Origin: an uncultured Rhodospirillaceae bacterium
Lineage (GTDB): Bacteria > Pseudomonadota > Alphaproteobacteria > CAAGCB01 > CAG-977
NCBI GenBank assembly: GCA_900550445.1
Contig: URSF01000008.1
Location: 787 to 64,786, forward strand
Length of the DNA: 64,000 nt
Direction of reading: 5' to 3'
Shown here piece after piece: positions 38,964 to 56,536 of this stretch (position 1 is its first letter; each line of letters starts with the position of its first letter). The notes under the pieces are model-generated. The model was given only the letters and a program-made list of their open reading frames with translations. It searched no databases and was not told where the DNA came from. Position numbers and translations under genes: made by a program.

Positions 38964-40463
38964 TTAGATTTCTAATTCTTTAAGATATGCAGACATTTTG
39001 TCCTGAACAGCACTAAGTTGTGCTTCCAAATCGGCGATTTCGGCTTTGACGGCGGACAAGTCAATTTCCTCTTCCTCCTCAAACGTATCGACATAACGCG
39101 GAATATTCAGGTTAAAGTCGTTTTCTTCAATCTCGTCAAAGCTTGCCAAATGCGAAAATTTTTCAATTTCCGAACGGTTTTTATAAGTCTCAAATATCTT
39201 GGTGATGTGCTCCGGTTCAAGCGTGTTTTGATTTTTTCCCGCCTTAAATTCTTTGCTGGCATCAATAAACAAGACGTCTTTTCGTTCTTGATTTTTACCG
39301 CCTTCCTGTCGGGACTTGTCAAAAATCAAAATGGCGACGGGAATTCCCGTCGTTTGGAACAATCCTGCCGGCAAACCGATAACCGCATCCAGCAGATTTT
39401 CCTTTATCAGCGCTTGGCGGATGCGCCCCTCCGAACTGCCGCGAAACAAAACACCGTGCGGAACAATTACCGCAACGCGCCCCGATTTTTCTTTGGCGGT
39501 GGCGATCATATGCGAAATAAACGCATAATCCCCCTTGCTGGCCGGAGGCATTCCGCGATCAAAACGATGATAGATGTCATTTTCCAAATGCTTTTCGCCC
39601 CATTTATCTAAAGAAAAAGGAGGGTTTGCGACAATCACATCGAACTGCATCAGTTTTTCATCCTCTTTCAGCAAAGGATTGTTCAGCGTGTCTCCCCATT
39701 CCAAACGGGCGGAATCTTTGTGGTGCAAAAACATATTCATACGCGCCAGATTGTACGTCGCTCCGGTTTTTTCCTGACCGTACAAGGCATAGTCTTTGGA
39801 TTCTTGTTTTTCGACTTCTTCGCCCGCCAACAAAAGCAGACCGCCCGAACCGCAGGTCGGGTCGCAAATGCGATCCCCGGGCTTTGGCATCGCCAGTTTT
39901 GCCAGCAATGACGCAACGACTTTCGGGGTGTAGAACTCACCCGCCTTTTTCCCCGCATCCGACCCAAAGCGTTCGATCAGATACATATACGCGTTACCCA
40001 GCAGGTCGCCGTCAACTTCCGACAGGTCAACTTTGCTAAAATCACTGATCATATCCCGCAACATTTTGTTACGTTGTGATGTCTGACCCAAAACGGACTG
40101 GCTATTAAAATCAACCGTAAAAATATCGTGCAAAGGTCCGTTTGCCTCTTCAATTTTATGTAACGCGATGTTCAGAAGTTCGCCTATATTGTCCGCGTTC
40201 TGGTTTTCATAAATGTCGGAAAAGGTCGCCCCCTCAGGCAAAACAAAGCGCGCGTTTTTCAGTTTCAACGCAATGCGATCTTTGTCGTCACCGTAACGGT
40301 CTTTCAGTTTTTTGACTTCGGCTTGCTTGATGTCGCTGATATATTTAAAGAATAAAAACGCTAAAATATAATCCTTAAAAATACTGCTATCCACAACGCC
40401 CCGCGCAGAATCCGCAGCGTTCCACAGCAGTTTATTCAATTCGTCTTGAGTTAAAACAGCCAT
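38964..40463 (-). CDS. hsdM: type I R-M DNA methyltransferase subunit M
   Basis: 499 aa. HsdM N-terminal domain, AdoMet motif ICDPTCGSGGLL, catalytic VIVANPPFS. Confidence 0.95.
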   Translation of the reverse strand: MAVLTQDELNKLLWNAADSARGVVDSSIFKDYILAFLFFKYISDIKQAEVKKLKDRYGDDKDRIALKLKNARFVLPEGATFSDIYENQNADNIGELLNIALHKIEEANGPLHDIFTVDFNSQSVLGQTSQRNKMLRDMISDFSKVDLSEVDGDLLGNAYMYLIERFGSDAGKKAGEFYTPKVVASLLAKLAMPKPGDRICDPTCGSGGLLLLAGEEVEKQESKDYALYGQEKTGATYNLARMNMFLHHKDSARLEWGDTLNNPLLKEDEKLMQFDVIVANPPFSLDKWGEKHLENDIYHRFDRGMPPASKGDYAFISHMIATAKEKSGRVAVIVPHGVLFRGSSEGRIRQALIKENLLDAVIGLPAGLFQTTGIPVAILIFDKSRQEGGKNQERKDVLFIDASKEFKAGKNQNTLEPEHITKIFETYKNRSEIEKFSHLASFDEIEENDFNLNIPRYVDTFEEEEEIDLSAVKAEIADLEAQLSAVQDKMSAYLKELEI

Positions 40464-40464
40464 T

Positions 40465-41019
40465 TTATATCTCCGTATTTAAAGACAATTCCAATAATTT
40501 TGCTTTTTTCTCTGCCAAACGTCGCGACAATTCCTTTTCCTTTAAAAGCAAAAAGTATGTTTCCGCAAGAAGTTTCTGCCGTTTCAAGGGCAACGGCGGA
40601 ATATCCAAACTTTCAATGCCCGATCGAACAATAGCCTGCAAAGTGCCGGGATTCCTGCGAGAGGACATTTGTGCTTGTCCCGATTTTGAATTAAGATAAA
40701 AAACCAGAAACTTGGGCAAAAAATGTTTGTCCCGAACGGAAAGCACAAACAACAAATTGGAAGCAATGGCGTCATGAGCACCTTGATACAGTGCGGCTTT
40801 AAATTCGCCTCTGCTTGACAGAAGAACGTCCTCTGCCTTTAACAGATAATCCTTCTTGAAATGTTTGGGAGTGAAACAAACCGGGACATCCGCGATAATC
40901 CCGCCGCCGATCACGTCCTTCGGCTGAACAACTTGATATAATCCGTCCGACATATTCGGCACTGCTCCTCGAAAAGGATAGCCTGCTCTGATTTCGGCAA
41001 TGTCACAAAGTCGTGTCAA
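40465..41019 (-). CDS. half-size HsdS-like protein (single TRD + one conserved helix)
   Basis: 184 aa. N-terminus LCDIAEIRAGYPFRG is typical of S-subunit TRDs. C-terminal coiled helix LLKEKELSRRLAEKKAKLLELSL. 1-nt gap from hsdM. Confidence 0.75.
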   Translation of the reverse strand: MTRLCDIAEIRAGYPFRGAVPNMSDGLYQVVQPKDVIGGGIIADVPVCFTPKHFKKDYLLKAEDVLLSSRGEFKAALYQGAHDAIASNLLFVLSVRDKHFLPKFLVFYLNSKSGQAQMSSRRNPGTLQAIVRSGIESLDIPPLPLKRQKLLAETYFLLLKEKELSRRLAEKKAKLLELSLNTEI

Positions 41020-43474: not shown

Positions 43475-44377
43475 ATGACGGTAAGCACAACAATAAATAA
43501 AATGTCTTATATCGGAAACGGAATTGCCACAAGCTTTGCCATTCCTTTTCCTTATTTAGACATTTCTCATTTAAAGGTGTATCAGCTTTTAAATGACATT
43601 CAGACAGAAAGAACGGATTGGACGGTTCAAAACGGCAATCTGATTTTTGAAACGGCTCCGGTGATGGACGCTCAGATTGTGATTATTCGGGAATTGCCTT
43701 TTATTCAAGAAACCGATTATCAGGAAAACGAAATACTGGCAGCAGAAACTTTGGAGAAAAACTTTGATGCTTTAACAATGCAAATACAGCAGTTGAAGGA
43801 ACAAGCCGACAGAGCCGTGACGGTGGATCTGTTTGACGAAACGGCCGCTTCGGATTTACTGCCTAGCATCAGATCTGCTGTTTCCAATGCCGCCGAGTAT
43901 GCTCAATCGTCGGCAGAACAAGCAAATAATGCCGCACAATCCGCCCAAACAGCAACGGAAAAAGCTTTAATCGCGACAAACAAGGCTCAAGAAGCGATAA
44001 ATACATTGGCAAACAAAGCTGATAAAAGTGTATATGCTTCAAAAACCGTTCGCGGTGTGGCAATGTGGGCAAACACGTATTCTAATGTGACAGAAAATCG
44101 TCCTGCTACAGTTATCATCAGTTATGTCAACGGTTCTTCTTGGTATCGTTTGTGGTCCGACGGTTGGATCGAACAAGGCTTTTCAATTTCCGGCGATTCA
44201 AATATGTTAAATTGGCCGAAGCCTTTTTCTAATACAAATTATACGGTAACGAGTACCCCTGTTGTATATAATAATTATGGAGTGCAGGCTGTTTCCATTA
44301 CATCAAAAACCGCGGCAGGGATTGTCTGGGCTGGAACGAATTATTCCTCGACCTGTTGGTATGCCTGCGGTTATTAA
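43475..44377 (+). CDS. phage tail fibre protein with T7 gp17-like N-terminal adaptor domain
   Basis: 300 aa. The N-terminus (YIGNGIATSFAIPFPYLDISHLKVY ... IVIIRELPFIQETDYQEN ... LTMQIQQLKEQADR) parallels the T7 gp17 N-terminal region. It has an Ala/Gln-rich coiled coil and a C-terminal tip with WYRLWSDGWIEQG. Confidence 0.75.
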   Translation: MTVSTTINKMSYIGNGIATSFAIPFPYLDISHLKVYQLLNDIQTERTDWTVQNGNLIFETAPVMDAQIVIIRELPFIQETDYQENEILAAETLEKNFDALTMQIQQLKEQADRAVTVDLFDETAASDLLPSIRSAVSNAAEYAQSSAEQANNAAQSAQTATEKALIATNKAQEAINTLANKADKSVYASKTVRGVAMWANTYSNVTENRPATVIISYVNGSSWYRLWSDGWIEQGFSISGDSNMLNWPKPFSNTNYTVTSTPVVYNNYGVQAVSITSKTAAGIVWAGTNYSSTCWYACGY

Positions 44378-44391
44378 TGGGAGATTGATCA

Positions 44392-44721
44392 ATGAAAACA
44401 CTACGACAGATTTCTGACGAACAACCTGTTCTGTATGCACAAATGGCTTTAGAGGCAAACAATGCAGGGAAATTGTTGATTGTTGATAATAACGATCAGT
44501 TGCAGTTGGCAGACTATCCGGAAAAAACAGATGAGGAAAAAGCCGCTGATATCAGAAAACACAGAAATGCTTTATTGGAGGCGACTGATAAATATATGTT
44601 GGAAGATTTTCCGATTTCAACAGAAAAGAAACAAGCCTATAAAGACTATCGCCAACAACTGCGTGATATAACGGCGACAGAAAATTTTCCGTACGATATA
44701 AAATTTCCGGTAATGCCGTAA
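44392..44721 (+). CDS. tail fibre assembly chaperone
   Basis: 109 aa. RKHRNALLEATDKYMLEDFPIS...AYKDYRQQLRDITATENFPYDIKFPVMP is the typical Tfa C-terminal signature. Confidence 0.75.
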   Translation: MKTLRQISDEQPVLYAQMALEANNAGKLLIVDNNDQLQLADYPEKTDEEKAADIRKHRNALLEATDKYMLEDFPISTEKKQAYKDYRQQLRDITATENFPYDIKFPVMP

Positions 44722-44726
44722 TGAAA

Positions 44727-44768
44727 TAGCATCACCGCCTAAATGGCGGTGATGCTATTGTTTTTATT
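44727..44768. terminator. strong hairpin terminator between convergent tfa and the acyltransferase gene
   Basis: TAGCATCACCGCC-TAAAT-GGCGGTGATGCTA (13-bp stem) followed by TTGTTTTTATT. Confidence 0.8.
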
Positions 44769-45903
44769 AAAAAACAGAATGGGTATCTTTTGCAATCTTT
44801 TCTAAAAAAAGCCTTATCGGTTTTTCAACAAAAGCATAACAGATAATACCGACACTTACGGTAATGATTATACATAATATATAAATACCCATCATTGCGA
44901 TATCAGGCAAGTTTGACAAATCTGAATAAAAGAATTCAATTCCTTTTCTAAAAAAAATAAAACAGACTTCTTGCATTATATATGTTGCGTAAGAAATATC
45001 TCCTAATTTTCCAAAAAATTTGCGATCTAAAAAATTTGACAGATAAGATTTTTTCAACATAAATACCAGAATCAGAGCTGCAATGCTCAGCGTCATCAGC
45101 AGATCATTTTGATATTTAAAATAATGAAAAGCCACATTCCTGAAAACAAAGATAAACAGTACTGTTTCAATGATACCAAAAATCATTTTTTCTTTTTTGA
45201 TCGGGGAAAGAAAATGTTTTGATAAAATATCATACATATGTCCCACACCCAATCCCAACCCCATTTCTGAGACAGCCCGCAACATTCCAAAATTGAGCAA
45301 AGAGTAAAATGTCGGTTTAAGATGAGCGTTAAAGGATCCGTTGTTTCCATGAACCATTAAAACAAAAGCGAAATAAGCGATTAAAGAGACCGTCAGAAAA
45401 AATCCTCGCTCCGAAAGAACAGAGTGTAAAATATAATAAAATAGACAGCTCCAGAACAGAGAAGAAACAAACCATGCCGAAGCATTATTGCCAAAAACCA
45501 ACGTCAATCCACTGTTTTGTAAAAATAGTAAATTTAATATATTACTGTATTTTTCAAATGCGACCAATTCGAGTAATGAAGCGCACCAAAAACAAAAGAT
45601 GGAAAAAAATAACAGAGGCCATAAGCGCATAAACTTTTTCCAGACAAAAGAATTTATACTATTTGGCGACCTTTTAAGAGTTCTTTGCAACCAGACACCA
45701 CTGAGTATAAAAAAGAATTCAACCCCCATGTATCCTTTTGCGGCATATGAACGCATTGTAGCTATCAGCGGGGACACGTGAACAAAATCAACAAACAATC
45801 CCGTCAAACAGGAGAGGTGATGATTTATAATGACGAGCGCGAACAGAAATCTTAAAAAATCCAAATTATAAAATCTGGTTGCGGATTCTTTATCTTTCCA
45901 CAT
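44767..45903 (-). CDS. acyltransferase family 3 membrane O-acyltransferase
   Basis: 378 aa with ~10 TM. N-terminal RFYNLDFLRFLFALVIINHH is typical of OafA/Acyl_transf_3 proteins. 14-nt overlap with the upstream gene. Confidence 0.85.
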   Translation of the reverse strand: MWKDKESATRFYNLDFLRFLFALVIINHHLSCLTGLFVDFVHVSPLIATMRSYAAKGYMGVEFFFILSGVWLQRTLKRSPNSINSFVWKKFMRLWPLLFFSIFCFWCASLLELVAFEKYSNILNLLFLQNSGLTLVFGNNASAWFVSSLFWSCLFYYILHSVLSERGFFLTVSLIAYFAFVLMVHGNNGSFNAHLKPTFYSLLNFGMLRAVSEMGLGLGVGHMYDILSKHFLSPIKKEKMIFGIIETVLFIFVFRNVAFHYFKYQNDLLMTLSIAALILVFMLKKSYLSNFLDRKFFGKLGDISYATYIMQEVCFIFFRKGIEFFYSDLSNLPDIAMMGIYILCIIITVSVGIICYAFVEKPIRLFLEKIAKDTHSVF

Positions 45904-47074
45904 TTATGATCCTTGATAATTCTTTGATTAAATCATGCCCGTCCCAAATCACATCAATGTTCAGAGCTTTTCCTATAGGAACAATACGATCAATTCCTCG
46001 TGTATTTGAAGCGATAAGAGCGCTGCACAATTTTTCAGGATCAATGCCGAAATATGTAATTGTCTGAAATTTTTCTGTAATGACTGCGAATAATTCTTTT
46101 TCGTCCTTTAAAGCGTATTCGAAAAAATATCCGCCTTTGCCGCGGTGATTGACAATGTCCGACGTTAATGTTTTCAATTCTTCGCGATACAGCAAATTAT
46201 CATGATGCGTGCAGCGTTCCATATTATTGTTTAAAATGCTTTCCGTACAAAACAGTGTATATTTATCAACCGCAACAGCATCTTGCAGCGTGTATTTTTC
46301 TCGGGCTGTACGCTCTGCCGCCGTCCAGAATTTTTCACGAGCCGCCTTGCTGTCGTTCAGCCACAAGATTGTTTGTGCGGAAGAACAGGCATTCTGATCC
46401 ATCAGCCACGTGTCGTTATAAAAGTTCTCGGATAAACGTTTCATTTGCGTTTCATCAGCATTTAAAACGGCGTCGGCATCAATCATCGCAATCGAGTACC
46501 GGTCGGCAAAAGCAATATCAACGCATCTGGGAAGGGCCGGCAGAGATTTAATGTTTTCGATTGTTTTGTCTCCTCCCCAGATCATACGCGCGTCCGCGAT
46601 TTTACAAAACTCTGCCGTTATTTCGTCACTGCGGGGGTAACGTACAAAAGCCGTTCTTTTTTCAATTTCCGGATATCTTTGCAATATTTCTTTTATTGTT
46701 GCGCACAAAGCGTCAACCTGCGGAAAAATTTTAGACGGCAAACGGACAATGTTTGCGTTGCCGGCCAATAATCCGAATACATATGTAAAAGCAAAATTGA
46801 CGGGAATATTTGACGGTGCGATATGAAAACACAGTCCGCGCCCCAAACGTCTTTCCGTCGAACCGAAATCGGATTTTAATTTTTGCAGGTTGGCTTTACG
46901 TCCCCAAAAAGCCAACGCCGACAAATCGGGAAAAACACGTATCAAAGGCGATTTCATCAGTGTCGCAGATATTTCCGCGATAAAAGCGCATACGCTGTCG
47001 TTGTAAACAGGCAGTGGAGTCCGATTTATATCCGACGTTCCGACAATATAATCAACGTTTTTCATAGGTATCAC
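45890..47074 (-). CDS. LuxC-like acyl-CoA/acyl-ACP reductase
   Basis: 394 aa. HIAPSNIPVNFAFTYVFGLLAGNANIVRLPSK resembles the LuxC family core. Confidence 0.7.
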   Translation of the reverse strand: MIPMKNVDYIVGTSDINRTPLPVYNDSVCAFIAEISATLMKSPLIRVFPDLSALAFWGRKANLQKLKSDFGSTERRLGRGLCFHIAPSNIPVNFAFTYVFGLLAGNANIVRLPSKIFPQVDALCATIKEILQRYPEIEKRTAFVRYPRSDEITAEFCKIADARMIWGGDKTIENIKSLPALPRCVDIAFADRYSIAMIDADAVLNADETQMKRLSENFYNDTWLMDQNACSSAQTILWLNDSKAAREKFWTAAERTAREKYTLQDAVAVDKYTLFCTESILNNNMERCTHHDNLLYREELKTLTSDIVNHRGKGGYFFEYALKDEKELFAVITEKFQTITYFGIDPEKLCSALIASNTRGIDRIVPIGKALNIDVIWDGHDLIKELSRIINVER

Positions 47075-48128
47075 TGCACCCTCTCAATTCAGCGCTTTTA
47101 ATGCGCCCGTGAATTTTGAAATACTTTCCTTTACGCCCGCAGGGACAATTGTCAATACCTAAAATTTCACCTTCATCTTCGGTTAATAAAACGTGACCGG
47201 GGTACGATGTAGGCAAAACGGATAATAATTCCATCAGCCCTTTTTCTCCGATATCGGCGGAACTGAAATCTTTGGGACGGCGAATAATTACGTCGGAATA
47301 ATTGGAACAGTGCATATGCCCGTGTTCGCATTCGACAAAAACGGATCCAAGTTGTTCCGCCATTCCGTAGTAATTATAAACTTTGACATTTCCTAATCTT
47401 GCTTGCACACGGCGGTTAAATTCCAAAGCGTCAACCGCTTGGTCTTTTAATTTTTTCCAACCGCCGATATGAAATAAAACGGCGTTTTGCGCATTGAATG
47501 AGATATTTTTTTCTTCCAAAGCGCGAACAACAAACTGCCAAATCATATACGTGTAGCCGAACATTAAAATCGGTTCGTTTTTGTGTTCTTCAAAAAAAGA
47601 GGAAACCTTCTCAAGATCAATATTCATTTCGGCGTCCAAAGCGTAAGTGCTGTTACGCCCGAAAATCGAAAAACCGATAATGCCGGCGCCTCTGGCGGAA
47701 TACATCGACCGGTCTTTTTTTATCATTTCCGTGTCCAGCAACAATAAAGGCAAACGCTGTTTGCCGATAAACGAAGAGATAATCTCATTGAGTGTTTTGC
47801 TTTGAGCTCGAACGTTATCCGCGCTTAAAAAAATCTTGGACACAGCTTGACCGGACGTCCCTGACGAAGTCAGTGTCTTTGTGATTTGTTCTTGAGGAAC
47901 GGATCGTAATTCAAACTCTTTAAACAACCGGACGGGAATAAAAGGAAGCTCTGCACAGGTATGATTTTTTGACGCATCGAAAGACAAAGCGTTTAATATC
48001 CGAGCGTATTCGGGACAGTTGGCGTAATGCCAATGTGTCAAATCCGATAGGATTTCAGACAAAGCCCGTTCTTTTTGAGAAGCTCCAAGCGAATAAGGAG
48101 CCAATTGAAACAAATCATTCAACGTCAT
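47052..48128 (-). CDS. LuxE-like acyl-protein synthetase (adenylate-forming)
   Basis: 358 aa. TSSGTSGQAVSKIF P-loop-like motif, HWHYANCPEYARIL N-terminal block, and C-terminal C..CGRKGKYFKIHGR. Confidence 0.7.
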   Translation of the reverse strand: MTLNDLFQLAPYSLGASQKERALSEILSDLTHWHYANCPEYARILNALSFDASKNHTCAELPFIPVRLFKEFELRSVPQEQITKTLTSSGTSGQAVSKIFLSADNVRAQSKTLNEIISSFIGKQRLPLLLLDTEMIKKDRSMYSARGAGIIGFSIFGRNSTYALDAEMNIDLEKVSSFFEEHKNEPILMFGYTYMIWQFVVRALEEKNISFNAQNAVLFHIGGWKKLKDQAVDALEFNRRVQARLGNVKVYNYYGMAEQLGSVFVECEHGHMHCSNYSDVIIRRPKDFSSADIGEKGLMELLSVLPTSYPGHVLLTEDEGEILGIDNCPCGRKGKYFKIHGRIKSAELRGCSDTYEKR

Positions 48129-48765
48129 GACTTACCTCTTTAATAAAGATATCCTGCGGTTCGGAAAAAACGGCTCCAAAAGCCGCATAAACATTCATTA
48201 CGGCAGTGTTTTGCGTACTGATACGTCCTTCTAATTTTTTATAACCGCGTTGTTTCGCAACTTTACAGGCGTTGGCGTATAAAGCCATTGCCGCTCCTGT
48301 CATGCGGTATTTTTCAGATACGGCGGCCAAATGTACAAACAGTGTATCCGCAGATGTTTCTTTCAAAGCCAAAAATCCGATCGGCAATTCTTTAAACAAA
48401 GCCACAAAAACCGCGTCTAATTCATCTACCCATTGTTTTAAAACCATTCCGGAAATATCTGTCGAACAATCGGGAAGTATATGAAAACGGCGATCATAAA
48501 CAAAAGATTCAACCGCTATTTTCAGAATATCCTCTTTGTATCGTGTCGTTTCGATAATCGGCAAACGGATAAACTTATCCAGATCCGTCTCGCATTTCGC
48601 AAGGCTGATAGCCGTTTTAACCGTTCTGTCGGCTAAAAAAAATCCTTGACGCTGATATATCGTCTCCGTTTCGGCATTTGTCGGTTTGACGATGCGCAAA
48701 ACCGAAACACCGTCGGTTTTTGTTTCATCATCGCTTATTACGATATTGCCATACGTTAAAATCAT
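48115..48765 (-). CDS. GNAT-fold acyltransferase
   Basis: 216 aa. Acyl-CoA-binding core HLAAVSEKYRMTGAAMALYANACKVAKQRGYKKLEGRISTQNTAVMNVY. Confidence 0.6.
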   Translation of the reverse strand: MILTYGNIVISDDETKTDGVSVLRIVKPTNAETETIYQRQGFFLADRTVKTAISLAKCETDLDKFIRLPIIETTRYKEDILKIAVESFVYDRRFHILPDCSTDISGMVLKQWVDELDAVFVALFKELPIGFLALKETSADTLFVHLAAVSEKYRMTGAAMALYANACKVAKQRGYKKLEGRISTQNTAVMNVYAAFGAVFSEPQDIFIKEVSHDVE

Positions 48766-50195
48766 TTATCATCTAATTCCGCATAAAGTGTTTTACCGGC
48801 ATCGTTTTTAGGAATTTCAGCCAAGTATTCAACGTGAAACGCCGTAAAATTCAAATGTGTTTTTTCCGCTACAAAAGACTGAATTTCTTTTAACTTTGTT
48901 TCGTCGGTGATAAAAATTTTCATTGCGTCGTCTTTGCCTGCGCAAGCACAATCAAAGTCCGGATAATGCGTTTTAATTAGCCGTTCCGTTTCATCAAGAT
49001 TGACGCGATTGCCGAAAATTTTTAAAAATCGCTTTTTGCGACCGACAATATAAAAATATCCGTCAGCATCGAATTTAGCCATGTCACCTGTTTGCAATAT
49101 TCCGCCGCGTTCGTCGCCTTTAATCAAATCTTCTCCGCAAACGGCATAGCCGAGTGTAACGTTATCGCCTTTATAGAGCAATTCCCCGACCGTGTCAGGT
49201 GTCGTGATTTGCTCTCCTTTGTCGTCAATCAAAGTCAGCGTGCCGCCCGGAATCGCGATGCCCATCGATCCCTTTTTCACCAAAGCTTTATCCGCCGGCA
49301 AATATGCCATGCGTGCGGTTGCTTCCGCTTGTCCGTACATGACAACGAACTTTTTTCCTTCTCGTTCAGCATATTCCGCGAATTTTTGATGCAAGTCGGG
49401 CAGGATTTTACCGCCGGCTTGGGTCATTGTCCGCAAATCAGGCAGTTTTCTGCGAAAGAACATTAGCTTGTCCAACATTTCGTAAGTATATGGCACACCG
49501 CCGAAAGAAGTCGCTTTCTGTTTCGTAAACAAATTCCAAAACTCGCGCTGCATCAATGTTGATCGAGTAAGGATAATGGTGGCTCCTACCGCAAAATGCG
49601 TATTGATAATCGATAAACCGTAAGTGTAGTTCATCGGCAATGTCGTAATCGCGCGTTCCGTTGAATCCAAGGCTAAATATTCAACGATAGATGACGTGTT
49701 CGCTTTGATGTTTTTATAGCTTTGGCGCACAAACTTGGGTGATCCCGTCGACCCAGAAGTCGTCAGCAGTAAAGCCAATTCTTCATACAACGGATAAACG
49801 TGCTCGTCTGTTCGTTTAAGCAATGAGTAGCCGTTTGAAGAATAGATGATATCCCCTGTGAAATCTTTGGTTTTGTCTGAAGGCAGCCAAAGATAATCGG
49901 GTTTGTAATGATTTAGAAAATTATTCAATAATTCTAAATCAATATGCTCATCCAACATCAACGGCACAATACCGTGATTTAAAAAAGCGATATATCCGAT
50001 CAAAGATCCGATTGTATTGGAACATAAGTTGAAAACCAAACAACGGGAAGGGATATGCGCAACCAAAGCTTTTGCCGCTTCGTCGATTTGCGCGTAAGAA
50101 AATGTTTCTTCGTTTTCGGTTACAACCGCTGTTTTATCTTTAAACTCAAGCAAATTCCACATTGTATTTTGCAAGGATTTCTTTCCCTTTTTCAT
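48762..50195 (-). CDS. AMP-dependent synthetase/ligase (ACP-loading type)
   Basis: 477 aa. LLLTTSGSTGSPKFV (A3), YGQAE, GDMAKFDADGYFYIVGRKKRFLKIFGNRV (A8). The start is uncertain because the ORF overlaps the ACP gene end. Confidence 0.9.
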   Translation of the reverse strand: MKKGKKSLQNTMWNLLEFKDKTAVVTENEETFSYAQIDEAAKALVAHIPSRCLVFNLCSNTIGSLIGYIAFLNHGIVPLMLDEHIDLELLNNFLNHYKPDYLWLPSDKTKDFTGDIIYSSNGYSLLKRTDEHVYPLYEELALLLTTSGSTGSPKFVRQSYKNIKANTSSIVEYLALDSTERAITTLPMNYTYGLSIINTHFAVGATIILTRSTLMQREFWNLFTKQKATSFGGVPYTYEMLDKLMFFRRKLPDLRTMTQAGGKILPDLHQKFAEYAEREGKKFVVMYGQAEATARMAYLPADKALVKKGSMGIAIPGGTLTLIDDKGEQITTPDTVGELLYKGDNVTLGYAVCGEDLIKGDERGGILQTGDMAKFDADGYFYIVGRKKRFLKIFGNRVNLDETERLIKTHYPDFDCACAGKDDAMKIFITDETKLKEIQSFVAEKTHLNFTAFHVEYLAEIPKNDAGKTLYAELDDK

Positions 50196-50385
50196 AGCTG
50201 TTTAAATCGACGATGTCGTCGGGTTCCAACATAATGTCGAAAGCCTCTTCAATTTGGGCGACCAACCCCATGTGACCGACAGAATCCCATGCATCAATTG
50301 CTTGAAATGTCAGGCTTTTGGCTGTTTCAGGCTCTATATCAAAAGCCTGACAAAATGCGTTGGCGTATTTTTCTTCGTTTGTCAT
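50146..50385 (-). CDS. acyl carrier protein
   Basis: 79 aa. Phosphopantetheine site AWDSVGHMGLV. Confidence 0.85.
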   Translation of the reverse strand: MTNEEKYANAFCQAFDIEPETAKSLTFQAIDAWDSVGHMGLVAQIEEAFDIMLEPDDIVDLNSYEKGKEILAKYNVEFA

Positions 50386-51362
50386 TTACAAATCTCCTCA
50401 TAAGTGTTTTTTATTTTTAAAGCAATTTTTTCGGGCGTAAGATCATGAACGTCATGCATATAAGCATACTCTCCGGCATGCGGATAAAATGGCTTCGTCC
50501 CGATTATTAAATGCGCGGGACGTTGGCTTTTTAACGCCATCGTTTCTTCAATCGCACTGCCTAATCCCCCGATTGTCGAATGTTCCTCAACGGAAACAAT
50601 CAATTTTGCATCACAGGCGGTTGTAACAGCCTGAACGTCTAAAGGCTTGATGGTATGGATATCAACCACTTTAACGGATATATCGTTTTCTTCAAGCTTT
50701 TCAGCGGCTTTTAACGCATTATGAACCATACTTCCCGTCGCCATTATGACAACATCTGAACCGTCGCGCAAAGTTATCGCTTTACCGATTTCAAAATCGA
50801 AATCTTTTTGATACACGATCGGATTATTCATTGTTCCCGACAAACGAAGGTATACGGGAGCGGAAATCTTTGCCGCCGCTTCCACGGCCTTTTCCGTTTC
50901 CAATCCGTCGGCCGGAGAAAGAATGATCATATTATTGATCGCCCGAAGAGCCGCAATATCTTCCAATGCATAATGCGTTGTCCCGAACATACCAAATGAA
51001 AATCCGGCGCCAAAACCGACCAGTTTCACATTTTCGCGCATATATCCCAAAAAGTGCCGAACCTGTTCACAAGAACGTAACGACGCAAAGTTTGAAAATG
51101 TCGCCGCAAACGGTATTTTGCCGCAAGAAGCCAGTCCGGCCGCAATTCCGATCATATTTTGTTCGGCAATTCCGGTATTATAAAAACGTTGCGGAAAAGT
51201 CTTTTGGAATCTGTCCAGTCCGGAGGTATTACATAAATCCGCCGCTAACGCGACGATATTTTCGTTTTGTTCAGCCAATCGCGTTAAGGTTGTTCCAAAA
51301 ACCCCTCTTTGCCCTAACATGGATAAAGTACGCAAATAAGAAGGTTTAATTTCCATAACCAC
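50382..51362 (-). CDS. transketolase, C-terminal (pyrimidine-binding) subunit
   Basis: 326 aa. FYNTGIAEQNMIGIAAGLA and the FGMFGTTHYALEDIA blocks. Confidence 0.9.
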   Translation of the reverse strand: MVMEIKPSYLRTLSMLGQRGVFGTTLTRLAEQNENIVALAADLCNTSGLDRFQKTFPQRFYNTGIAEQNMIGIAAGLASCGKIPFAATFSNFASLRSCEQVRHFLGYMRENVKLVGFGAGFSFGMFGTTHYALEDIAALRAINNMIILSPADGLETEKAVEAAAKISAPVYLRLSGTMNNPIVYQKDFDFEIGKAITLRDGSDVVIMATGSMVHNALKAAEKLEENDISVKVVDIHTIKPLDVQAVTTACDAKLIVSVEEHSTIGGLGSAIEETMALKSQRPAHLIIGTKPFYPHAGEYAYMHDVHDLTPEKIALKIKNTYEEICK

Positions 51363-52140
51363 CCTCCGTTATTTCTGAAATCGCCTGCGTTAGCTGTGCT
51401 TGTGTTAATTTCCCGTGATGCCATTCGCGGGCGTTTTCCATAAAAGAAACGCCTTTTCCTTTAACCGTATGCGCCAAAATGACTTTCGGTTGATTATGTG
51501 CTTGCGACAATTTGATTTTTAACGCTTGCACATCATGTCCGTTACATTCTTCAACAATCCAACCGCAAGCTTCCCACATTTTTTTTATATCAAACGTTAA
51601 AATGTCAGCGGATTTCCCATCTGCCTGCATTCCGTTCAGATCGACAATGACGGTCAAATCTTGGATTTTCCGATGACCGGCGAACATGGCACTTTCCCAA
51701 ATGCTGCCTTCGTTACATTCTCCGTCACCTAAAATGACGAAAACCCTTCTTCCCGCCAAAGCCAAACCGATGCCGTAAGACAAGCCCATACCCAGACTGC
51801 CGCCTGAAAATTCAATTCTTTTTTCAATGTTTTTTGACGGTTGTCCCGGAAAGTCGCCTCCGTTTTCTTCAAAAGAATCATAGTCTTTCTGCGAAATCAA
51901 ACCGGTTTCATACAATGCGGCGTACAAAGCCAATCCGGCATGACCTTTGCTTAAAATCAAACGATCCCGCGCTTCGTCAAAAGGATCGGATTTATTATAT
52001 TTTAATATGCCGTTATATAATGCCGTCAGTATTTCCACACATGATAAAGACGGCGCAATATGCGCGCCGTTATTACCGGCTTTAAAAGCGGACGTCAGAA
52101 TATTTTTACGCATGTTTTCAGCAAATGTCACATCTTCCAT
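51346..52140 (-). CDS. transketolase, N-terminal (ThDP-binding) subunit
   Basis: 264 aa. HIAPSLSCVEIL, SKGHAGLALYA and the ThDP motif GDGECNEGSIWE. Confidence 0.9.
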   Translation of the reverse strand: MEDVTFAENMRKNILTSAFKAGNNGAHIAPSLSCVEILTALYNGILKYNKSDPFDEARDRLILSKGHAGLALYAALYETGLISQKDYDSFEENGGDFPGQPSKNIEKRIEFSGGSLGMGLSYGIGLALAGRRVFVILGDGECNEGSIWESAMFAGHRKIQDLTVIVDLNGMQADGKSADILTFDIKKMWEACGWIVEECNGHDVQALKIKLSQAHNQPKVILAHTVKGKGVSFMENAREWHHGKLTQAQLTQAISEITEGGYGN

Positions 52141-52901
52141 TATAAACCTCCGTCTATGCGAATCACCTGGCCATTAATGAAGGACGATCTGTCCGAAGCT
52201 AAAAAAACGGCCGTGTCCGCAACTTCTTTCGGCGTGCCAAAACGTTTCATCGGCGTTAAATCTTTAGTCTTTTCCAATTCGTCAGCGGGCATCGTTTGCA
52301 AGATTTCTGTTTCAATCACACCGGGAGCAATACAATTCGATCGTATGCCTTGCGCCCCCAATTCATTGGCGATAACGCGCGACATCGCGATTAAAGCCGC
52401 CTTGGCCGAACCATATATCGCTTTCCCGGGATTCCCGTCCAATGCCGCCATGGAAGCTATGTTCACAATACTGCCGTGTCCTTGACGAACCATCAAATTG
52501 GAAATCATTTGCGTTAAGAAAAACGGCGCAAAAAAGTCCGTTTCAAAAATATCTCTCAAAGCTTTTTCTGCGGACATTTGAAACGAAGCGTTATGCATCA
52601 CGCCGGCATTGTTTATCAAAGCGTCCACCGGCAATTTTGAAGATCGAATTGATATGATCGCTTTTTTTACCGCTTCTTTGTCCGTCATATCAAAATAAAC
52701 GGGGCGAATTTCGATTTGATGTTTTACAGACAAATCCGAAACCAACTTGATAAAATCGGGCGTTTCCCGACGCGCATGAGCCCATACGGAAGCACCGTTC
52801 TCGACGCATTTTTCTAAAATGGCTTTGCCGATTCCACGATTCGTTCCCGTAATTAAAATATTTTTTCCTCTAAGCATTGTTTCCTTCCTTAAAGAAATCA
52901 A
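52140..52901 (-). CDS. SDR-family oxidoreductase (FabG-like)
   Basis: TGTNRGIG cofactor motif, NNAG, YGSAKAA catalytic YxxxK. Confidence 0.9.
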   Translation of the reverse strand: MISLRKETMLRGKNILITGTNRGIGKAILEKCVENGASVWAHARRETPDFIKLVSDLSVKHQIEIRPVYFDMTDKEAVKKAIISIRSSKLPVDALINNAGVMHNASFQMSAEKALRDIFETDFFAPFFLTQMISNLMVRQGHGSIVNIASMAALDGNPGKAIYGSAKAALIAMSRVIANELGAQGIRSNCIAPGVIETEILQTMPADELEKTKDLTPMKRFGTPKEVADTAVFLASDRSSFINGQVIRIDGGL

Positions 52902-54012
52902 TCCAATACTTGATTTTTTCTTCTCGCGTCATTTTATCCGAAGGCGTCTGATATAAACGAATCCCCCCGACATAAGTTTTAGACGTATTAACAACGCAAA
53001 ATCCCCAAGACAATCCCACACCGAATGTCGCCATACATAATGTGTTGACCGGATTATCCTTTAACTGTCTGCAAATGTCGGTCGTCACCGAAGCCGAACT
53101 GCAATTGCCATACTGTGTGAACGTTTCCGTCGACCATTTTTCCTTAGGCAGTTTGGCATACATGGCAACAGTTCGCACAATCTGTTTGTTTGCCTGATGG
53201 AACGCAAAATAATCAATCTCTTCCGTTTTTTTGCCGGCATATTCCAAAATTTCGTTAATACCGCGGGGACCGACGTCCGTTGTAAACTTAAAAACGTCCA
53301 TACCCTTCATGATATCGTCCCATAAATGCCAGACATTACCCGTGGCATCTGTGATTTCCAAAGAGGAAATATCTTCGCGCACGGGCAAATCGTAACCGCC
53401 CGCGGGCGCAATCAGCTTATCCCAATCTTTTCCGCGTGTCCCCGTATAAAAATAAGCCGTGTTTTCATCATCGGTATATTCCAATAACGTCGCGGACCCC
53501 GCATCGCCGAACAACATATTGGAATTGCGATTGCGCCGATCCGAATGTCTGCTGACAATATCGCCGGCCAAAACCAAACATTTCGAAGCGGTTTTTGCCG
53601 AAATCATCGAATGAGCCAACATTAATCCGTGAACGTAAGCCGAACAAGCCAACCCGGAAACATCAAAGCAAGTGCATTCCTCTTTTAATCCCAATCTGCC
53701 GTGCAACACGCATGCGGACGCGGGATAATGATAATCATGTGAGGCGGAAACAACGATCAAAGCGTCAATCGTATTTTTATCAATATTCAAACGCTCAAAT
53801 AAATCGTTTGCGGCGGCTTCGCATAAATCCGCGTTCGTCGTGCGTTCATCGGCCACATAACGCGTCCCCAATCCCAGAATTTTTTTATTACGTTCCAACA
53901 ACTTAAGATCATTGTTAAAGAACTCGATTTCGTCATCGATATTGATAAAATGTTCCGGAACGACAGCGGTAATGCCGGTGATTTTGACGTGCTCGAACTT
54001 GGATTTAGGCAT
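52870..54012 (-). CDS. KAS III (FabH)-like condensing enzyme, copy 2
   Basis: 380 aa. Cys in DVSGLACSAYVHG, His in FHQANKQIV, Asn in YGNCSSASV. Has a ~45-aa C-terminal extension shared with copy 1. Confidence 0.85.
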   Translation of the reverse strand: MPKSKFEHVKITGITAVVPEHFINIDDEIEFFNNDLKLLERNKKILGLGTRYVADERTTNADLCEAAANDLFERLNIDKNTIDALIVVSASHDYHYPASACVLHGRLGLKEECTCFDVSGLACSAYVHGLMLAHSMISAKTASKCLVLAGDIVSRHSDRRNRNSNMLFGDAGSATLLEYTDDENTAYFYTGTRGKDWDKLIAPAGGYDLPVREDISSLEITDATGNVWHLWDDIMKGMDVFKFTTDVGPRGINEILEYAGKKTEEIDYFAFHQANKQIVRTVAMYAKLPKEKWSTETFTQYGNCSSASVTTDICRQLKDNPVNTLCMATFGVGLSWGFCVVNTSKTYVGGIRLYQTPSDKMTREEKIKYWIDFFKEGNNA

Positions 54013-54023
54013 AAAAAAACTCC

Positions 54024-54764
54024 CTAACGACTGGCGCAGTCAACAACATAATTCTGACCGGTAATCCATTTGGCCTTATCGGACAACAAAAATACGACAA
54101 CATTGGCGACATCTTGCGGTTCGCCAAACCCCATCGGATAAAATTGACGCACTTTATCCATGATTTCAGGAATTCTTTGTGTCATGGGCGTATCTATATC
54201 AGACGGTGAAACCGTATTAAAACGAATACCCTTCGGAGCAAATTCTTTGGCAATCGCCACCATGGAGGCGACCAAAGCCGCTTTTGATCCCGAATAAGAA
54301 ATAATCGCTTTGGCCGGACGGTCGTAAGCACATGATGATATGGAAACAAAGCTGGAACCGGCACCGATGTTTACGCGTTTGTCGGCAAAGCCTTTGGCCA
54401 TCATGACGGGGGCAAAATAATTAATCTCAAACAGCTGTTTCATCGCATCAACATCTAATGCGCGCAACGGACGCGTTTCCGTTATGCCGGCGCAACAGGC
54501 GACACCTTTGAATTTACCGTATTTGTCTTTCAGCATGTTCATGAATTCAGGCAAAGCCGCAACATCTTGCGCCAAATCCTTTTGTTCGCAAAAAAACTTT
54601 TCGGGAAAAGCCGCTTTGTTCCGAACAGTATCAAGAGCTGCCGCATTACGAGCGATTCCAACAACCGTCGCTCCTTTCGCGTTCAAAGTTAATGCGACAG
54701 CTTCTCCGATTCCCGAAGAAGCCCCCGTAACAATAAAAAAATCCGTGTTATTGAAGGTAGGCAC
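54024..54764 (-). CDS. SDR-family oxidoreductase
   Basis: TGASSGIG and YSGSKAA. Paralog of 56540-57271. Confidence 0.9.
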   Translation of the reverse strand: MPTFNNTDFFIVTGASSGIGEAVALTLNAKGATVVGIARNAAALDTVRNKAAFPEKFFCEQKDLAQDVAALPEFMNMLKDKYGKFKGVACCAGITETRPLRALDVDAMKQLFEINYFAPVMMAKGFADKRVNIGAGSSFVSISSCAYDRPAKAIISYSGSKAALVASMVAIAKEFAPKGIRFNTVSPSDIDTPMTQRIPEIMDKVRQFYPMGFGEPQDVANVVVFLLSDKAKWITGQNYVVDCASR

Positions 54765-55180
54765 TACTGTTTCTCCTTTAATTGAACCAATTCGACGATC
54801 ATCGAATTACGAAACGCCAGATAACACCATGCCGCAATATCGGTATTGTCTTCGTCAACATAAGTGATCGGAACTAAAAACATTCCGCCGTTTTCTCGGA
54901 TCATTTTTTCTGCGTCGGCATTAATATCATCACTGATATAGGCAAAATGAAAAATTTTGCGCTTGGCCTGCAAATGAGGACTGACAGGCCCTTCCTTATT
55001 CAGATTAGTCACCAGTTCCAAATCAGGTTGTCCTTCCGCTTTTAAAAATTGAACCTGAATTTCCGACGACACGTCCATCCGTTTTTCCCCGTTGGGCATA
55101 TAACCGAATAAGGAAAAAAAGCCGATGTCTTTATCAATGTTTTTTGAAGCAATCCCTATATGATGCAAAGCTTTAATCAT
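54764..55180 (-). CDS. VOC/glyoxalase-fold protein (epimerase-like)
   Basis: 138 aa. LHHIGIASKNIDK N-terminal metal-ligand motif, typical of methylmalonyl-CoA epimerase/glyoxalase I folds. Confidence 0.7.
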   Translation of the reverse strand: MIKALHHIGIASKNIDKDIGFFSLFGYMPNGEKRMDVSSEIQVQFLKAEGQPDLELVTNLNKEGPVSPHLQAKRKIFHFAYISDDINADAEKMIRENGGMFLVPITYVDEDNTDIAAWCYLAFRNSMIVELVQLKEKQ

Positions 55181-55395
55181 AATCCGGCCTTTTTCGCAAT
55201 ATCTCCGATTGTTGTGACTTCATGATAATCTTTCATGGTCGTCTTGACGCCGAACGATTTTTCCAAAAAAGCCATCGTTGCCATTACGGACAAAGAATCC
55301 CATTCATCCAAATCTTCCAAAACCGTTTCGTAAGACAAATCTTCTTCTGTCTGCAAAACATCTTGCATTTCCGCCAAAAATTCTTCTTTAGTCAT
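55177..55395 (-). CDS. acyl carrier protein
   Basis: 72 aa. Phosphopantetheine site EWDSLSVMATM. Confidence 0.85.
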   Translation of the reverse strand: MTKEEFLAEMQDVLQTEEDLSYETVLEDLDEWDSLSVMATMAFLEKSFGVKTTMKDYHEVTTIGDIAKKAGL

Positions 55396-56536
55396 GTTCT
55401 TCTCCTTTAAAGTAGTTTATCCAATTCATAATTTGTTCCGATCGCGTTTTTCCGTTTTTCGGAACGGTGTAAGTTGAAATGCCTCCGTTGTACATTTCTG
55501 ATAAATCAACCGCCGCTCCGCCCCATGACAATCCGATCCCGAATGTGCAAAGAACCGTGTTTCCGATTGTTTTTCCGACAGCTTGATCACATAAAACCGT
55601 CACGACTGAATTAACCGAATTATTTGCATATCTTGAAAAGGTTTCTGTCGGTGCTTTTTCAAACGGTATTCCCGCTTTCGCAACGATCATTTCGACAATT
55701 TGTTTGTTTGCCTGATGAATGGCAAACAAATCAACGTCTTGTATCGTCCAAGCTGCGGCATTCATCGTATCCGACAATAACTTGGGAGCGACTTCCATTG
55801 TGAAATTAAAAACGTCTTCTCCTTTCATCAATCCCTGATCCGCAGTCCAAATGTTGCCGTTTCCGTCTACCACGGAAAGATCAAAGTCTTTTTTTTGGTA
55901 CGGCAAACGTTGCCCGCCGAACGGGTGGATTATTTTGTCCCAGTTCTTTCCGTCAGTCCCGGTGACGAAAAATGACTTGGGCGCTCCTTTCTCATATTTT
56001 AAAATTGTCGCGGATACGGCGTCTCCGAAAACAGGCGCTATTTTTCTGTTTTGAACCCGTATGTCATGAGCGGGATTATCTCCGGTCAACAACAAAGCCG
56101 TTTTAAAAGCTCCGGACGACATTAATCCCGATGCACACATCAAAGCATGTACATATCCGGAACAGCCCAGATTGATGCTTAAACAGGTACAGCTTTTGTT
56201 CAGTTCCAACAAACCGTGAACGATACAGGCATCGCTGGGACGCGGATAATCCGGATTTTGATTAACGAAAATCAGTAAATCTATTTCATCGGGAGAAATT
56301 CCCATTTCCTGTAATAACTTAACAGCAGCGTCTGTCGCCATATCCGTAACGGTTGTGTTTTGATCGGCAATATACCGTTTCCCGTATCCGATCATTTTTT
56401 TTGCGCGCGCCAATTTTTTTGGATTATCGTCAAAATATTCCAGTTCGTCATCAATATTGACACAGTGTTCCGGAATAACAGTTTTTATTCCTTTTATTTG
56501 AATATTTTCAAAACAAGTCGTTGTCATGACGGTCAC
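55388..56536 (-). CDS. KAS III (FabH)-like condensing enzyme, copy 1
   Basis: 382 aa. Cys in NLGCSGYVHA, His in IHQANKQIV, Asn in YANNSVNSV. Confidence 0.85.
   Translation of the reverse strand: MTVMTTTCFENIQIKGIKTVIPEHCVNIDDELEYFDDNPKKLARAKKMIGYGKRYIADQNTTVTDMATDAAVKLLQEMGISPDEIDLLIFVNQNPDYPRPSDACIVHGLLELNKSCTCLSINLGCSGYVHALMCASGLMSSGAFKTALLLTGDNPAHDIRVQNRKIAPVFGDAVSATILKYEKGAPKSFFVTGTDGKNWDKIIHPFGGQRLPYQKKDFDLSVVDGNGNIWTADQGLMKGEDVFNFTMEVAPKLLSDTMNAAAWTIQDVDLFAIHQANKQIVEMIVAKAGIPFEKAPTETFSRYANNSVNSVVTVLCDQAVGKTIGNTVLCTFGIGLSWGGAAVDLSEMYNGGISTYTVPKNGKTRSEQIMNWINYFKGEEHD

Follow-up and report, generated by a model that had tools for sequence, protein, structure and literature searches.

What might a pair of bioluminescence-type reductase genes, a transketolase divided over two genes and an acyl carrier protein (ACP) be doing together inside a polysaccharide operon? 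The question is raised by a 64,000-nt stretch of contig URSF01000008.1 (assembly GCA_900550445.1), hereafter the window, which comes from an uncultured Rhodospirillaceae bacterium. We approached it by sequence comparison and gene-context analysis of the window and of related loci in public genomes. The block in question encodes a LuxC-like acyl-thioester reductase, a LuxE-like acyl-protein synthetase, a GCN5-related N-acetyltransferase (GNAT), an AMP-forming ligase, a small carrier protein (ACP2), the C- and N-terminal halves of a transketolase (TK) and a short-chain dehydrogenase/reductase (SDR3). The most likely product of this cassette is an unusual acyl group, rich in hydroxyls, that decorates an amino sugar. 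For the more specific proposal that the eight genes are a portable acyl-tailoring cassette, giving a glycan pathway a short polyhydroxylated N-acyl group by a five-step route, we regard the case as evenly balanced.

Does the block form a unit? A sequence-only reading of the window had described seven overlapping or abutting minus-strand genes, and all seven open reading frames (ORFs) lie where it had placed them (Table 1). On identical contigs from gut metagenomes, an independent gene caller returns the same genes, with slightly shorter starts for the ligase (48762–50162) and the TK C-half (50382–51356), and it calls the upstream SDR at 52140–52877. To the seven genes an eighth, SDR3, has to be added, because it abuts the TK N-half by 1 nt and travels with the TK pair in other genomes, standing directly beside it in 33 of the 36 TK-bearing loci described below. 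The functional block is thus one of eight genes, 45890–52877. Its spacing is tight throughout (the genes for ACP2 and the TK C-half share 4 nt), and the operon to which it belongs runs without a gap from beyond position 64000 down to the Acyl_transf_3 gene that overlaps the LuxC gene. Within the block, 20 promoter-like sites were counted against 21.7 expected from shuffled sequences, so that there is no enrichment and no evidence for internal promoters. The family assignments of the sequence-only reading (LuxC, LuxE, GNAT, AMP-ligase, ACP and split TK) were confirmed by Pfam, and NCBIfam agrees at the family level, although LuxC, LuxE and both TK halves score well under the equivalog cut-offs (29.3 bits against 750 for LuxC, and 75.5 against 550 for LuxE).

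The LuxE-like protein is matched by the Pfam family over its full length (residues 6–355) and aligns over residues 6–352 with the LuxE chain of 7XC6 (7XC6_E), including the C-terminal (R/K)GCS motif. The cysteine of this motif, Cys351, is kept in 84 of 84 relatives, and the P-loop TSSGTSG is conserved. In the LuxC-like protein, the sequence DQNACSS, with Cys230, aligns with the catalytic cysteine motif (DQxAC) of Photobacterium phosphoreum LuxC (7XC6_A), and Cys230 is retained in all 80 relatives compared. Because the catalytic cysteines and the P-loop are conserved in alignment with 7XC6, the pair is most simply read as a carboxylate-to-aldehyde reductase. Neither a luxD transferase gene nor luxAB luciferase genes were found among the genes of the operon. 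ACP2 gives only a weak PP-binding match (18.6 bits, under the cut-off of 20.8), and the serine of its WDSVGH motif, Ser35, is present in 72 of 72 relatives.

What kind of transketolase accompanies this pair? The C-half best matches, among structures in the Protein Data Bank (PDB), the split TK of Carboxydothermus hydrogenoformans (6YAJ), and the N-half matches 6YAK, with human TK also close. In human numbering, the enzyme of the window keeps His37, His77, His258, Arg318 and Glu366, together with the equivalent of E. coli His473, and it keeps the thiamine diphosphate (ThDP) motif GDG(E)...N as Asp155-Gly-Glu and Asn185; His110, a His in most relatives, is Gln. The substrate channel is a different matter. 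His416 is replaced by Gly, Asp424 by Phe and Ser345 by Thr, there is no Arg at position 474, and the signature RSEHDHR of canonical split TKs reads RTEGFHG. In the yeast, E. coli and human transketolases, the phosphate of the substrate is held by His416 and Arg474 (His461 and Arg520 in E. coli), whereas the 2-hydroxyl of the acceptor is bound by Asp424 (D469 in E. coli, D477 in yeast); replacement of D469 in the E. coli enzyme is the classical route to the acceptance of non-hydroxylated aldehydes. Judged by its active site, the cassette TK is therefore not a pentose-phosphate enzyme, because two phosphate binders and the Asp that contacts the acceptor 2-hydroxyl are lost. That the TK halves might be ordinary pentose-phosphate enzymes conserved at this position, a possibility the sequence-only reading had named against itself, is ruled out by these active-site changes and by the mobility of the cassette.

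The same alterations recur beyond the window. Across 55 cassette TKs, position 416 is Ser, Ala, Thr or Gly, and position 424 is Leu, Ser, Phe or Cys and never Asp, whereas Glu366 and the His473 equivalent are invariant. We also searched the C-half against 1.84 billion representative sequences (50% identity), which gave 2,017 matches at E<=1e-30. Among the best 150 of these, 110 are non-canonical; the canonical signature RSEHDHR is absent from ranks 1 to 40 and first appears at rank 41. These pocket residues lead us to suggest that the cassette TKs make up a large clade specialised for an acceptor that carries neither a phosphate nor an alpha-hydroxyl group. One locus from a Lachnospiraceae metagenome-assembled genome (MAG), L045, encodes a single-chain, full-length TK of 647 aa (14932–16875), through which the homologues of the two TK halves were joined into a single cluster.

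How widely is the block distributed? LuxE-like relatives are numerous, at least 7,966 at E<=1e-10 (7,966 of the 8,000 candidates scored). With a LuxE profile, we searched a set in which each species is represented by a single genome, retrieved 80 loci (numbered with an L here) and labelled their ORFs with the proteins of the window. The genomes closest to the window are MAGs of uncultured gut Alphaproteobacteria/Rhodospirillales, and the 80 loci span Alphaproteobacteria, Desulfovibrionaceae (including Bilophila wadsworthia ATCC 49260), Gastranaerophilales, Lachnospiraceae, Oscillospiraceae, Selenomonadaceae, Synergistaceae, spirochaetes and others. Gene contents were counted in the 48 loci with at least 7 kb upstream and at least 6 kb downstream of LuxE. 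ACP2 is present in all 48, LuxC in 47, the ligase in 44, an SDR3-like gene in 41, the GNAT of the cassette in 37 and the TK pair in 36; of the companion genes described below, a KAS2-like gene is found in 27 and ACP1 in 21. Because the same gene set recurs across phyla, its association is far beyond chance, and the cassette is widespread and horizontally mobile.

Two features of these loci bear on the role of the TK. Of the TK-bearing loci, 22 have the SDR-TK genes upstream of LuxE and 14 have them downstream, which shows that these genes move as a unit. In addition, four loci (L042, L044, L054 and L055) contain two LuxE-LuxC-TKn-TKc-SDR units (TKn and TKc being the two TK halves) and a single ACP, ligase and GNAT. 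The TK thus tracks LuxE-LuxC and the SDR, with which it is duplicated, and not the ACP alone. A reverse search, with a profile of cassette TK C-halves, gave seven matches that were inspected on their contigs. All six intact loci carry a 79–91-aa ACP, an AMP-binding protein, LuxE and LuxC beside SDR-TKn-TKc. They come from Paenibacillus peoriae; from Burkholderia sp. F1, with a PglD-like acyltransferase before the ACP and TPR/GT41 genes downstream; from a Bacteroidales MAG with a methyltransferase gene directly after the TK; from a JGI contig with PglD-like, DegT and RmlA/C/D genes; from a second JGI contig (L090), in which the cassette lies beside FliW-CsrA-flagellin; and from a contig with genes for beta-ketoacyl-ACP synthase III (KAS-III) and a protein resembling lactate or malate dehydrogenase (LDH/MDH). 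The seventh (L092, 6482–9978) is a decayed SDR-TK copy, with SDR and TKn fragmented and without LuxE or LuxC, and it adjoins a fragment of an IS66-family transposase. The coupling between TK and LuxE/LuxC therefore holds in both directions, as the LuxE-anchored and TK-anchored counts agree. Together, this co-variation and the altered pocket fit a TK that acts downstream of LuxC, on an aldehyde.

How could these enzymes cooperate? The cassette contains two ATP-dependent activators of carboxylates, the ligase with its ACP and LuxE with LuxC, and the economical reading is a short dicarboxylate, because two activators need two activations. In our model, the AMP-ligase would adenylate a short dicarboxylic acid of the malate, succinate or malonate type and load one carboxyl onto ACP2. 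A nucleotide-linked deoxy sugar with a 4-amino (or 3-amino) group would be N-acylated from ACP2 by the GNAT or, in other genomes, by a PglD-like acyltransferase. LuxE would then adenylate the remaining free carboxyl and carry it on its C-terminal cysteine, and LuxC would reduce the thioester to an aldehyde. To this aldehyde the specialised split TK would add a C2 ketol. Because its phosphate site is lost, the donor would probably be non-phosphorylated, for example hydroxypyruvate or another ketol donor. Finally, SDR3 would reduce the new ketone, giving a terminal 1,2,3-triol. The products expected would be 4,5,6-trihydroxyhexanoyl from succinate, 2,4,5,6-tetrahydroxyhexanoyl (3-deoxyhexonoyl) from malate and 3,4,5-trihydroxypentanoyl from malonate; in a cassette without TK, the SDR would yield an omega-alcohol. 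As an alternative order, reduction and extension might precede loading and transfer, and they might take place on the free acid, the ACP or the sugar. For the part of the model in which an aldehyde made by LuxE and LuxC on the N-acyl group of an amino sugar, or on its ACP-bound precursor, is extended by a phosphate-blind TK and reduced by an SDR to deoxy-aldonoyl chains, our confidence is tentative and stops somewhat short of an even balance.

Several details of the loci are compatible with this model. The closest solved relatives of the ligase are oxalate-CoA ligase, malonyl-CoA synthetase and 4-hydroxybutyrate-CoA ligase. The GNAT shows a weak but near full-length match (29 bits) to WecD, the dTDP-4-amino-4,6-dideoxygalactose acyltransferase (NF008212), and a search of the PDB with it returned generic GNAT matches only. 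An N-acyltransferase is close to the ACP in most glycan-linked cassettes, either a GNAT or, in other loci, a PglD-like acyltransferase of the left-handed beta-helix (LbH) type that takes the place of the GNAT; in L045, LuxC is fused to a GNAT (8103–9983, 626 aa, Pfam-confirmed). In many Firmicute loci, the order ACP-ligase-GNAT-LuxE-LuxC-TKn-TKc-SDR is colinear with the proposed route. At least nine loci have a gene of the L-lactate/malate dehydrogenase family directly downstream of LuxC (e.g., L027, 12236–13219; L091, 13850–14800), whose product could furnish malate or another 2-hydroxy acid, or act on it. The sugar partners are also visible in related genomes. In L014, whose LuxE is 82% identical to that of the window, the full cassette including TK is followed directly by homologues of PseB, PseC and PseF and, further downstream, by TIM-barrel, DUF4910/NAT, formyltransferase-like, NeuB/PseI and KpsS-like genes. 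At least eight loci have NeuB, PseF-like or DUF4910 genes in the vicinity of the cassette, glycosyltransferase (GT) and Wzm/Wzt-like genes follow it in Bilophila, and in L089 a methyltransferase gene follows the TK. The idea of the sequence-only reading that an ACP-centred module makes a short oxygenated acyl group, which the GNAT delivers to an amino sugar, is supported. A dicarboxylate reading has long been proposed for the tetronate genes of Vibrio cholerae O1, in which rfbK–rfbO are reportedly held responsible for the 3-deoxy-L-glycero-tetronyl (2,4-dihydroxybutanoyl) group on perosamine, and the analogy that the earlier reading drew with these genes may serve as a working model.

Could products of such cassettes have been seen already? 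In Aeromonas piscicola AH-3, genes for an ACP, a 3-oxoacyl-ACP reductase, an AMP-dependent synthetase, luxE and luxC lie between pse genes, and the flagellin is modified with a 376.14-Da derivative of pseudaminic acid as well as an unidentified 102-Da moiety (PMC7874193). Subtracting the mass of diacetylated pseudaminic acid (Pse5Ac7Ac, 316.13) from 376.14 leaves 60.02, or C2H4O2. By this arithmetic, the 376.14-Da sugar would correspond to Pse5Ac7Ac in which one acetyl is replaced by dihydroxybutanoyl (C4H6O3, 102.03 Da). Malate would be expected to yield this acyl group in a pathway that lacks the TK, and the group would match the tetronate of V. cholerae. A second case is the flagellin of Treponema denticola, whose pseudaminic acid is reported to carry a 2-methoxy-4,5,6-trihydroxyhexanoyl group (PMC13439194). 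The predicted product of malate, C2 ketol and reduction, plus one O-methyl group, would equal this acyl group; the match is a chemical one and we treat it as a lead. A transcriptome of T. denticola offered nothing relevant to this link.

Other observations weigh against the dicarboxylate route. The likeness of the ligase to dicarboxylate ligases is weak (at most 88 bits), and the step order and the acceptor sugar are inferred, as are the acid and the TK donor, which are guesses. The T. denticola acyl group could equally come from 2-keto-3-deoxygluconate. In the window itself, the order SDR-TK-ACP-ligase-GNAT-LuxE-LuxC is not colinear with the route, and a single dicarboxylate leaves the four loci with doubled LuxE-LuxC-TK-SDR units unexplained. 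Furthermore, in 24 related loci, a gene for a protein with the metallo-beta-lactamase (MBL) fold (about 220–247 aa, with an HxHxDH motif; e.g., L027, 7210–7953; L016, 7244–7972; L073, 9346–10014) stands right after the ACP. There is none in the window. This protein may be a thioesterase, in which case it would suggest release and then reduction of the same carboxyl. Finally, the Treponema loci reached through LuxE (T. vincentii L073; L074, L075 and L080; L083–L086) consist of ACP-MBL-LuxE-LuxC only and lie in a non-glycan setting, with HpaB/AbfD-like, acetyl-CoA-transferase and FabA-like neighbours. A similar minimal module, ACP-(MBL)-LuxE-LuxC(-ligase), also occurs outside glycan loci in Flavonifractor/Oscillospiraceae (L066–L072, L077–L081), next to genes for HpaB/4-hydroxybutyryl-CoA-dehydratase-like proteins, acetyl-CoA hydrolase/transferase, Fe-alcohol dehydrogenase, FabA-like proteins and NifU. 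In both groups, the module seems to put this reductase pair to another, metabolic use, and the neighbours of the minimal module in the Flavonifractor-type and Treponema loci would indicate a C4-acid setting, a hint for the dicarboxylate model.

These observations also sustain a rival in which only one carboxyl is handled, as in lux. An acid on ACP2, perhaps extended by KAS-III and SDR, would be released by a thioesterase-like step (the MBL-fold protein or the GNAT), activated again by LuxE and reduced by LuxC, and the TK and SDR would convert the aldehyde into a polyol or ketose-like unit that enters a non-amide link or a higher-carbon sugar. The MBL-fold genes beside the ACP, the minimal ACP-MBL-LuxE-LuxC module that stands alone in Treponema, the KAS-III/SDR/ACP1 modules that often accompany the cassette, and the doubled units, which are easier to understand as iterative steps, would all suit such a scheme. 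It sits poorly with the N-acyltransferase beside the ACP in most glycan-linked cassettes, with the lack of an MBL gene in the window, and with the TK-less Aeromonas cassette, which accompanies an acyl-sized change (+60 Da) on pseudaminic acid. Moreover, the cassette joins unrelated sugar pathways, of the dTDP type and the Pse type, as expected for a substituent and not for a sugar core. We consider the single-carboxyl scheme unlikely. A TK might instead act upstream. The sequence-only reading had proposed that the split TK takes C2 units from ketose phosphates to place glycolyl on the ACP, as do QncN/QncL/QncM and NapB/NapD, with the ligase, LuxE and LuxC serving to load and reduce. The TK does adjoin the ACP, and a TK/ACP glycolyl system of this kind is said to operate in tetrahydroisoquinoline antibiotic pathways. 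In that system, however, the oxidation of dihydroxyethyl-ThDP to glycolyl depends on an E2-like domain that bears a lipoyl group, and no Biotin_lipoyl or 2-oxoacid_dh domain was found in any gene of the operon, so that the route through a lipoyl E2 is ruled out. In addition, the TK lacks the two phosphate-binding residues that ketose-phosphate donors require, its gains, losses and duplications go along with those of LuxE-LuxC and the SDR and not with those of the ACP, and a TK that loaded the ACP would leave the ligase superfluous, although nearly all of the LuxE-anchored loci have one. The proposal that the TK serves as C2 donor for glycolyl-ACP is accordingly set aside as very unlikely.

Might LuxC run in the opposite direction? 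Acylating aldehyde dehydrogenases are reversible in principle, and if the TK and SDR made a small hydroxy-aldehyde that LuxC oxidised to a thioester ending on the ACP, the TK would supply the skeleton and have an upstream role without a lipoyl domain. This scheme would leave an ATP-dependent LuxE with an intact P-loop and acyl-Cys without a role, even though LuxE and LuxC occur together in all but one of the 48 loci, and TK-less cassettes still carry LuxE, LuxC and an SDR (PMC7874193). We regard it as highly improbable. The gene names LuxC, LuxE, FabG, FabH and ACP have, for their part, led to the suggestion of a fatty-aldehyde or liposugar route for the genes of flagellin islands (PMC7874193, PMC4875605), in which the glycan would be decorated with a long-chain aldehyde or a lipid derived from a fatty acid. 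For saturated chain growth, a dehydratase or enoyl reductase would be needed, and the operon has neither; TK and SDR would make no sense for a fatty chain. A long-chain fatty aldehyde is also ruled out by the ligase, which is closest to short-dicarboxylate ligases, by the Aeromonas sugar, which is just 60 Da above diacetyl-Pse, and by the scores of LuxC and LuxE, which are far under the NCBIfam long-chain equivalog cut-offs. Of this fatty-aldehyde or liposugar route we are extremely doubtful.

What is new here, and why might it matter? The sequence-only reading had considered the combination of genes novel. Full-text searching of a literature mostly without subscription journals returned no paper linking transketolase to LuxC/LuxE glycan cassettes. 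The TK-less core of ACP, reductase, ligase, LuxE and LuxC, on the other hand, is already on record in Aeromonas and enterobacterial flagellin islands (PMC7874193, PMC4875605), and the whole block is common in public genomes, which moderates the claim of novelty. What appears to be new is the association with a specialised split TK and an SDR, the size and spread of the TK clade, and the proposed C2-ketol extension of an acyl aldehyde.

The antigenic character of O-antigens, capsules and flagellins depends to a large degree on the acyl groups that surface amino sugars carry, the V. cholerae O1 tetronate being one example, and we know of no genes assigned to most of the unusual ones. Loci with the cassette occur in gut and oral commensals and pathobionts, and an assigned product would allow glycan chemistry to be predicted from sequence. 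If our model is true, similar undescribed decorations would be expected on capsules, O-antigens and flagellins of gut Alphaproteobacteria, Bilophila (Desulfovibrionaceae) and Lachnospiraceae, and also in Selenomonadaceae, Paenibacillus and Burkholderia. It would also mean that there is a new natural clade of transketolases accepting non-phosphorylated, non-alpha-hydroxylated aldehydes, an activity sought in biocatalysis through E. coli D469 variants. The cassette would further be the missing pathway for the 2-methoxy-4,5,6-trihydroxyhexanoyl group of T. denticola, and it could explain an orphan flagellin glycan that is needed for filament assembly and motility in that species.

Table 1. Genes of the cassette, its companion module and the surrounding glycan operon, with the operon end (window positions; where two upper limits are given, the first is that of the independent gene caller)
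Feature	Position	Strand	Predicted role or group	Evidence
LuxC-like acyl-thioester reductase, 394 aa	45890–47074	−	predicted aldehyde release	Pfam LuxC E=1e-26, 94 bits
LuxE-like acyl-protein synthetase, 358 aa	47052–48128	−	predicted carboxylate adenylation and C-terminal Cys carriage	Pfam LuxE 2.2e-53, 182 bits
GNAT acyltransferase, 216 aa	48115–48765	−	predicted N-acyltransferase, acyl-ACP to nucleotide-linked amino sugar	Pfam Acetyltransf_1/10, 1.8e-8
AMP-forming ligase, 466–477 aa by start codon	48762–50162/50195	−	predicted ACP2 loading	Pfam AMP-binding 1.6e-40
Carrier protein ACP2, 79 aa, motif WDSVGH	50146–50385	−		weak PP-binding match
TK C-half, remodelled substrate pocket	50382–51356/51362	−		Pfam Transket_pyr and Transketolase_C
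TK N-half, ThDP-binding	51346–52140	−		Pfam Transketolase_N 4.4e-35
SDR3	52140–52877	−	predicted ketol or aldehyde reductase	Pfam adh_short_C2 4e-55
Companion module, six genes (upstream)	52870–57271	−		Pfam/NCBIfam
KAS-III	52870–54012	−	companion module
SDR2	54024–54764	−	companion module
VOC/glyoxalase-fold protein	54764–55180	−	companion module
ACP1	55177–55395	−	companion module
KAS-III, second	55388–56527	−	companion module
SDR1	56540–57271	−	companion module
GT2, two Acetyltransf_3 GNATs, DegT, LbH-FdtA fusion, GT2, second DegT	57295–63971	−	glycan context
DegT aminotransferase	59171–60304	−	glycan context
LbH acetyltransferase-FdtA/WxcM-like 3,4-ketoisomerase fusion, 288 aa	60847–61713	−	glycan context
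DegT aminotransferase, second, partial	63333–63971	−	glycan context
Acyl_transf_3 membrane O-acyltransferase	44767–45903	−	last operon gene	Pfam 2.5e-16; 14-nt overlap with LuxC
Hairpin, 15-bp stem, between convergent genes	44725–44759		likely bidirectional terminator, operon 3' end

The wider operon agrees with the glycan setting assigned to it by the sequence-only reading, in that it contains two DegT genes, the LbH-FdtA fusion, GT2 genes and the Acyl_transf_3 gene; the window has three GNATs and two aminotransferases, and no pse or flagellin genes were found within its 64 kb. The LbH-FdtA fusion points to a dTDP-3-acetamido-3,6-dideoxyhexose branch within the operon. Among its genes are also a 251-aa ORF without a Pfam match (62597–63352) and a 73-aa ORF between a GNAT and a DegT gene (58943–59164). 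From the companion module, an acyl chain with a 3-hydroxy or 3,5-dihydroxy pattern is expected, because domain scans found no dehydratase and no enoyl reductase among the genes of the operon. The GC content of the window is a mosaic, 42–44.5% in the cassette and KAS module (46–56 kb), 36% in the Acyl_transf_3 gene, 38–39% in the GT/GNAT/DegT genes and about 47% in the left part, which is consistent with modular acquisition. Two plus-strand ORFs at 43475–44721 converge on the end of the operon, one of 300 aa without a Pfam match and one of 109 aa with a Phage_tail_APC match, and together they may represent what is left of a prophage bordering the glycan locus. Next to the operon lies a type I restriction-modification cluster on the minus strand (31733–41019), with Pfam matches to HsdM (38964–40463), Methylase_S (40465–41019 and 35883–37097) and an AAA_15/AAA_21 ATPase (37091–38950); its 1053-aa ORF (31733–34894) may encode HsdR.

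How does the cassette compare with known systems? The fatty-acid reductase of lux (7XC6) has the same folds and the same two catalytic cysteines, and the chemistry in the window would probably be the same, leading from acid and ATP through acyl-AMP, acyl-S-LuxE and acyl-S-LuxC to an aldehyde. However, the LuxC-like protein of the window is about 85 residues shorter, the sequences are very distant, there is no LuxD and no luciferase, and the predicted substrate is short and polar, whereas that of lux is myristate. With the canonical split TK of C. hydrogenoformans (6YAK/6YAJ), the enzyme of the window shares the two-gene architecture, the ThDP motif, the catalytic His and the cofactor-activating Glu, but two residues of the phosphate site and the Asp for the acceptor 2-hydroxyl are replaced. 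The naphthyridinomycin and quinocarcin systems likewise have a split transketolase-like enzyme beside a carrier protein. In contrast to them, the operon in the window has no lipoyl/E2 domain and no nonribosomal peptide synthetase, its TK has lost two sugar-phosphate binders, and TKs of its type co-vary with LuxE/LuxC and the SDR.

The core logic of the cassette is that of two systems known from glycan or glycosylation loci, the ACP/FabG/ligase/LuxE/LuxC blocks of flagellin islands and V. cholerae O1 rfbK-O. The islands of Aeromonas group II and Enterobacteriaceae share with the window the ACP, the SDR resembling 3-oxoacyl-ACP reductase, the AMP-dependent synthetase, LuxE and LuxC, and their block lies beside pseudaminic acid genes; related cassettes adjoin pse genes (L014) or a flagellin gene (L090). 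Neither paper on these islands mentions a transketolase, whereas the window bears one, and its locus is a DegT/FdtA-type polysaccharide operon and not a flagellin island (PMC7874193, PMC4875605). The likeness to rfbK-O, a matter of domain content and enzyme logic, extends to a carrier protein, an adenylating ligase, a LuxE/LuxC-type reductase, a further reductase and an N-acyltransferase within a glycan locus, the target there being a 4-amino-6-deoxy sugar. The two differ in that LuxE and LuxC are separate proteins in the window, whereas RfbN is a fused LuxC/LuxE-like protein, and in that the window has an SDR and a GNAT where rfbK-O has an Fe-alcohol dehydrogenase (RfbM) and an LbH transferase. 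To this shared core, the cassette of the window adds a specialised split transketolase.

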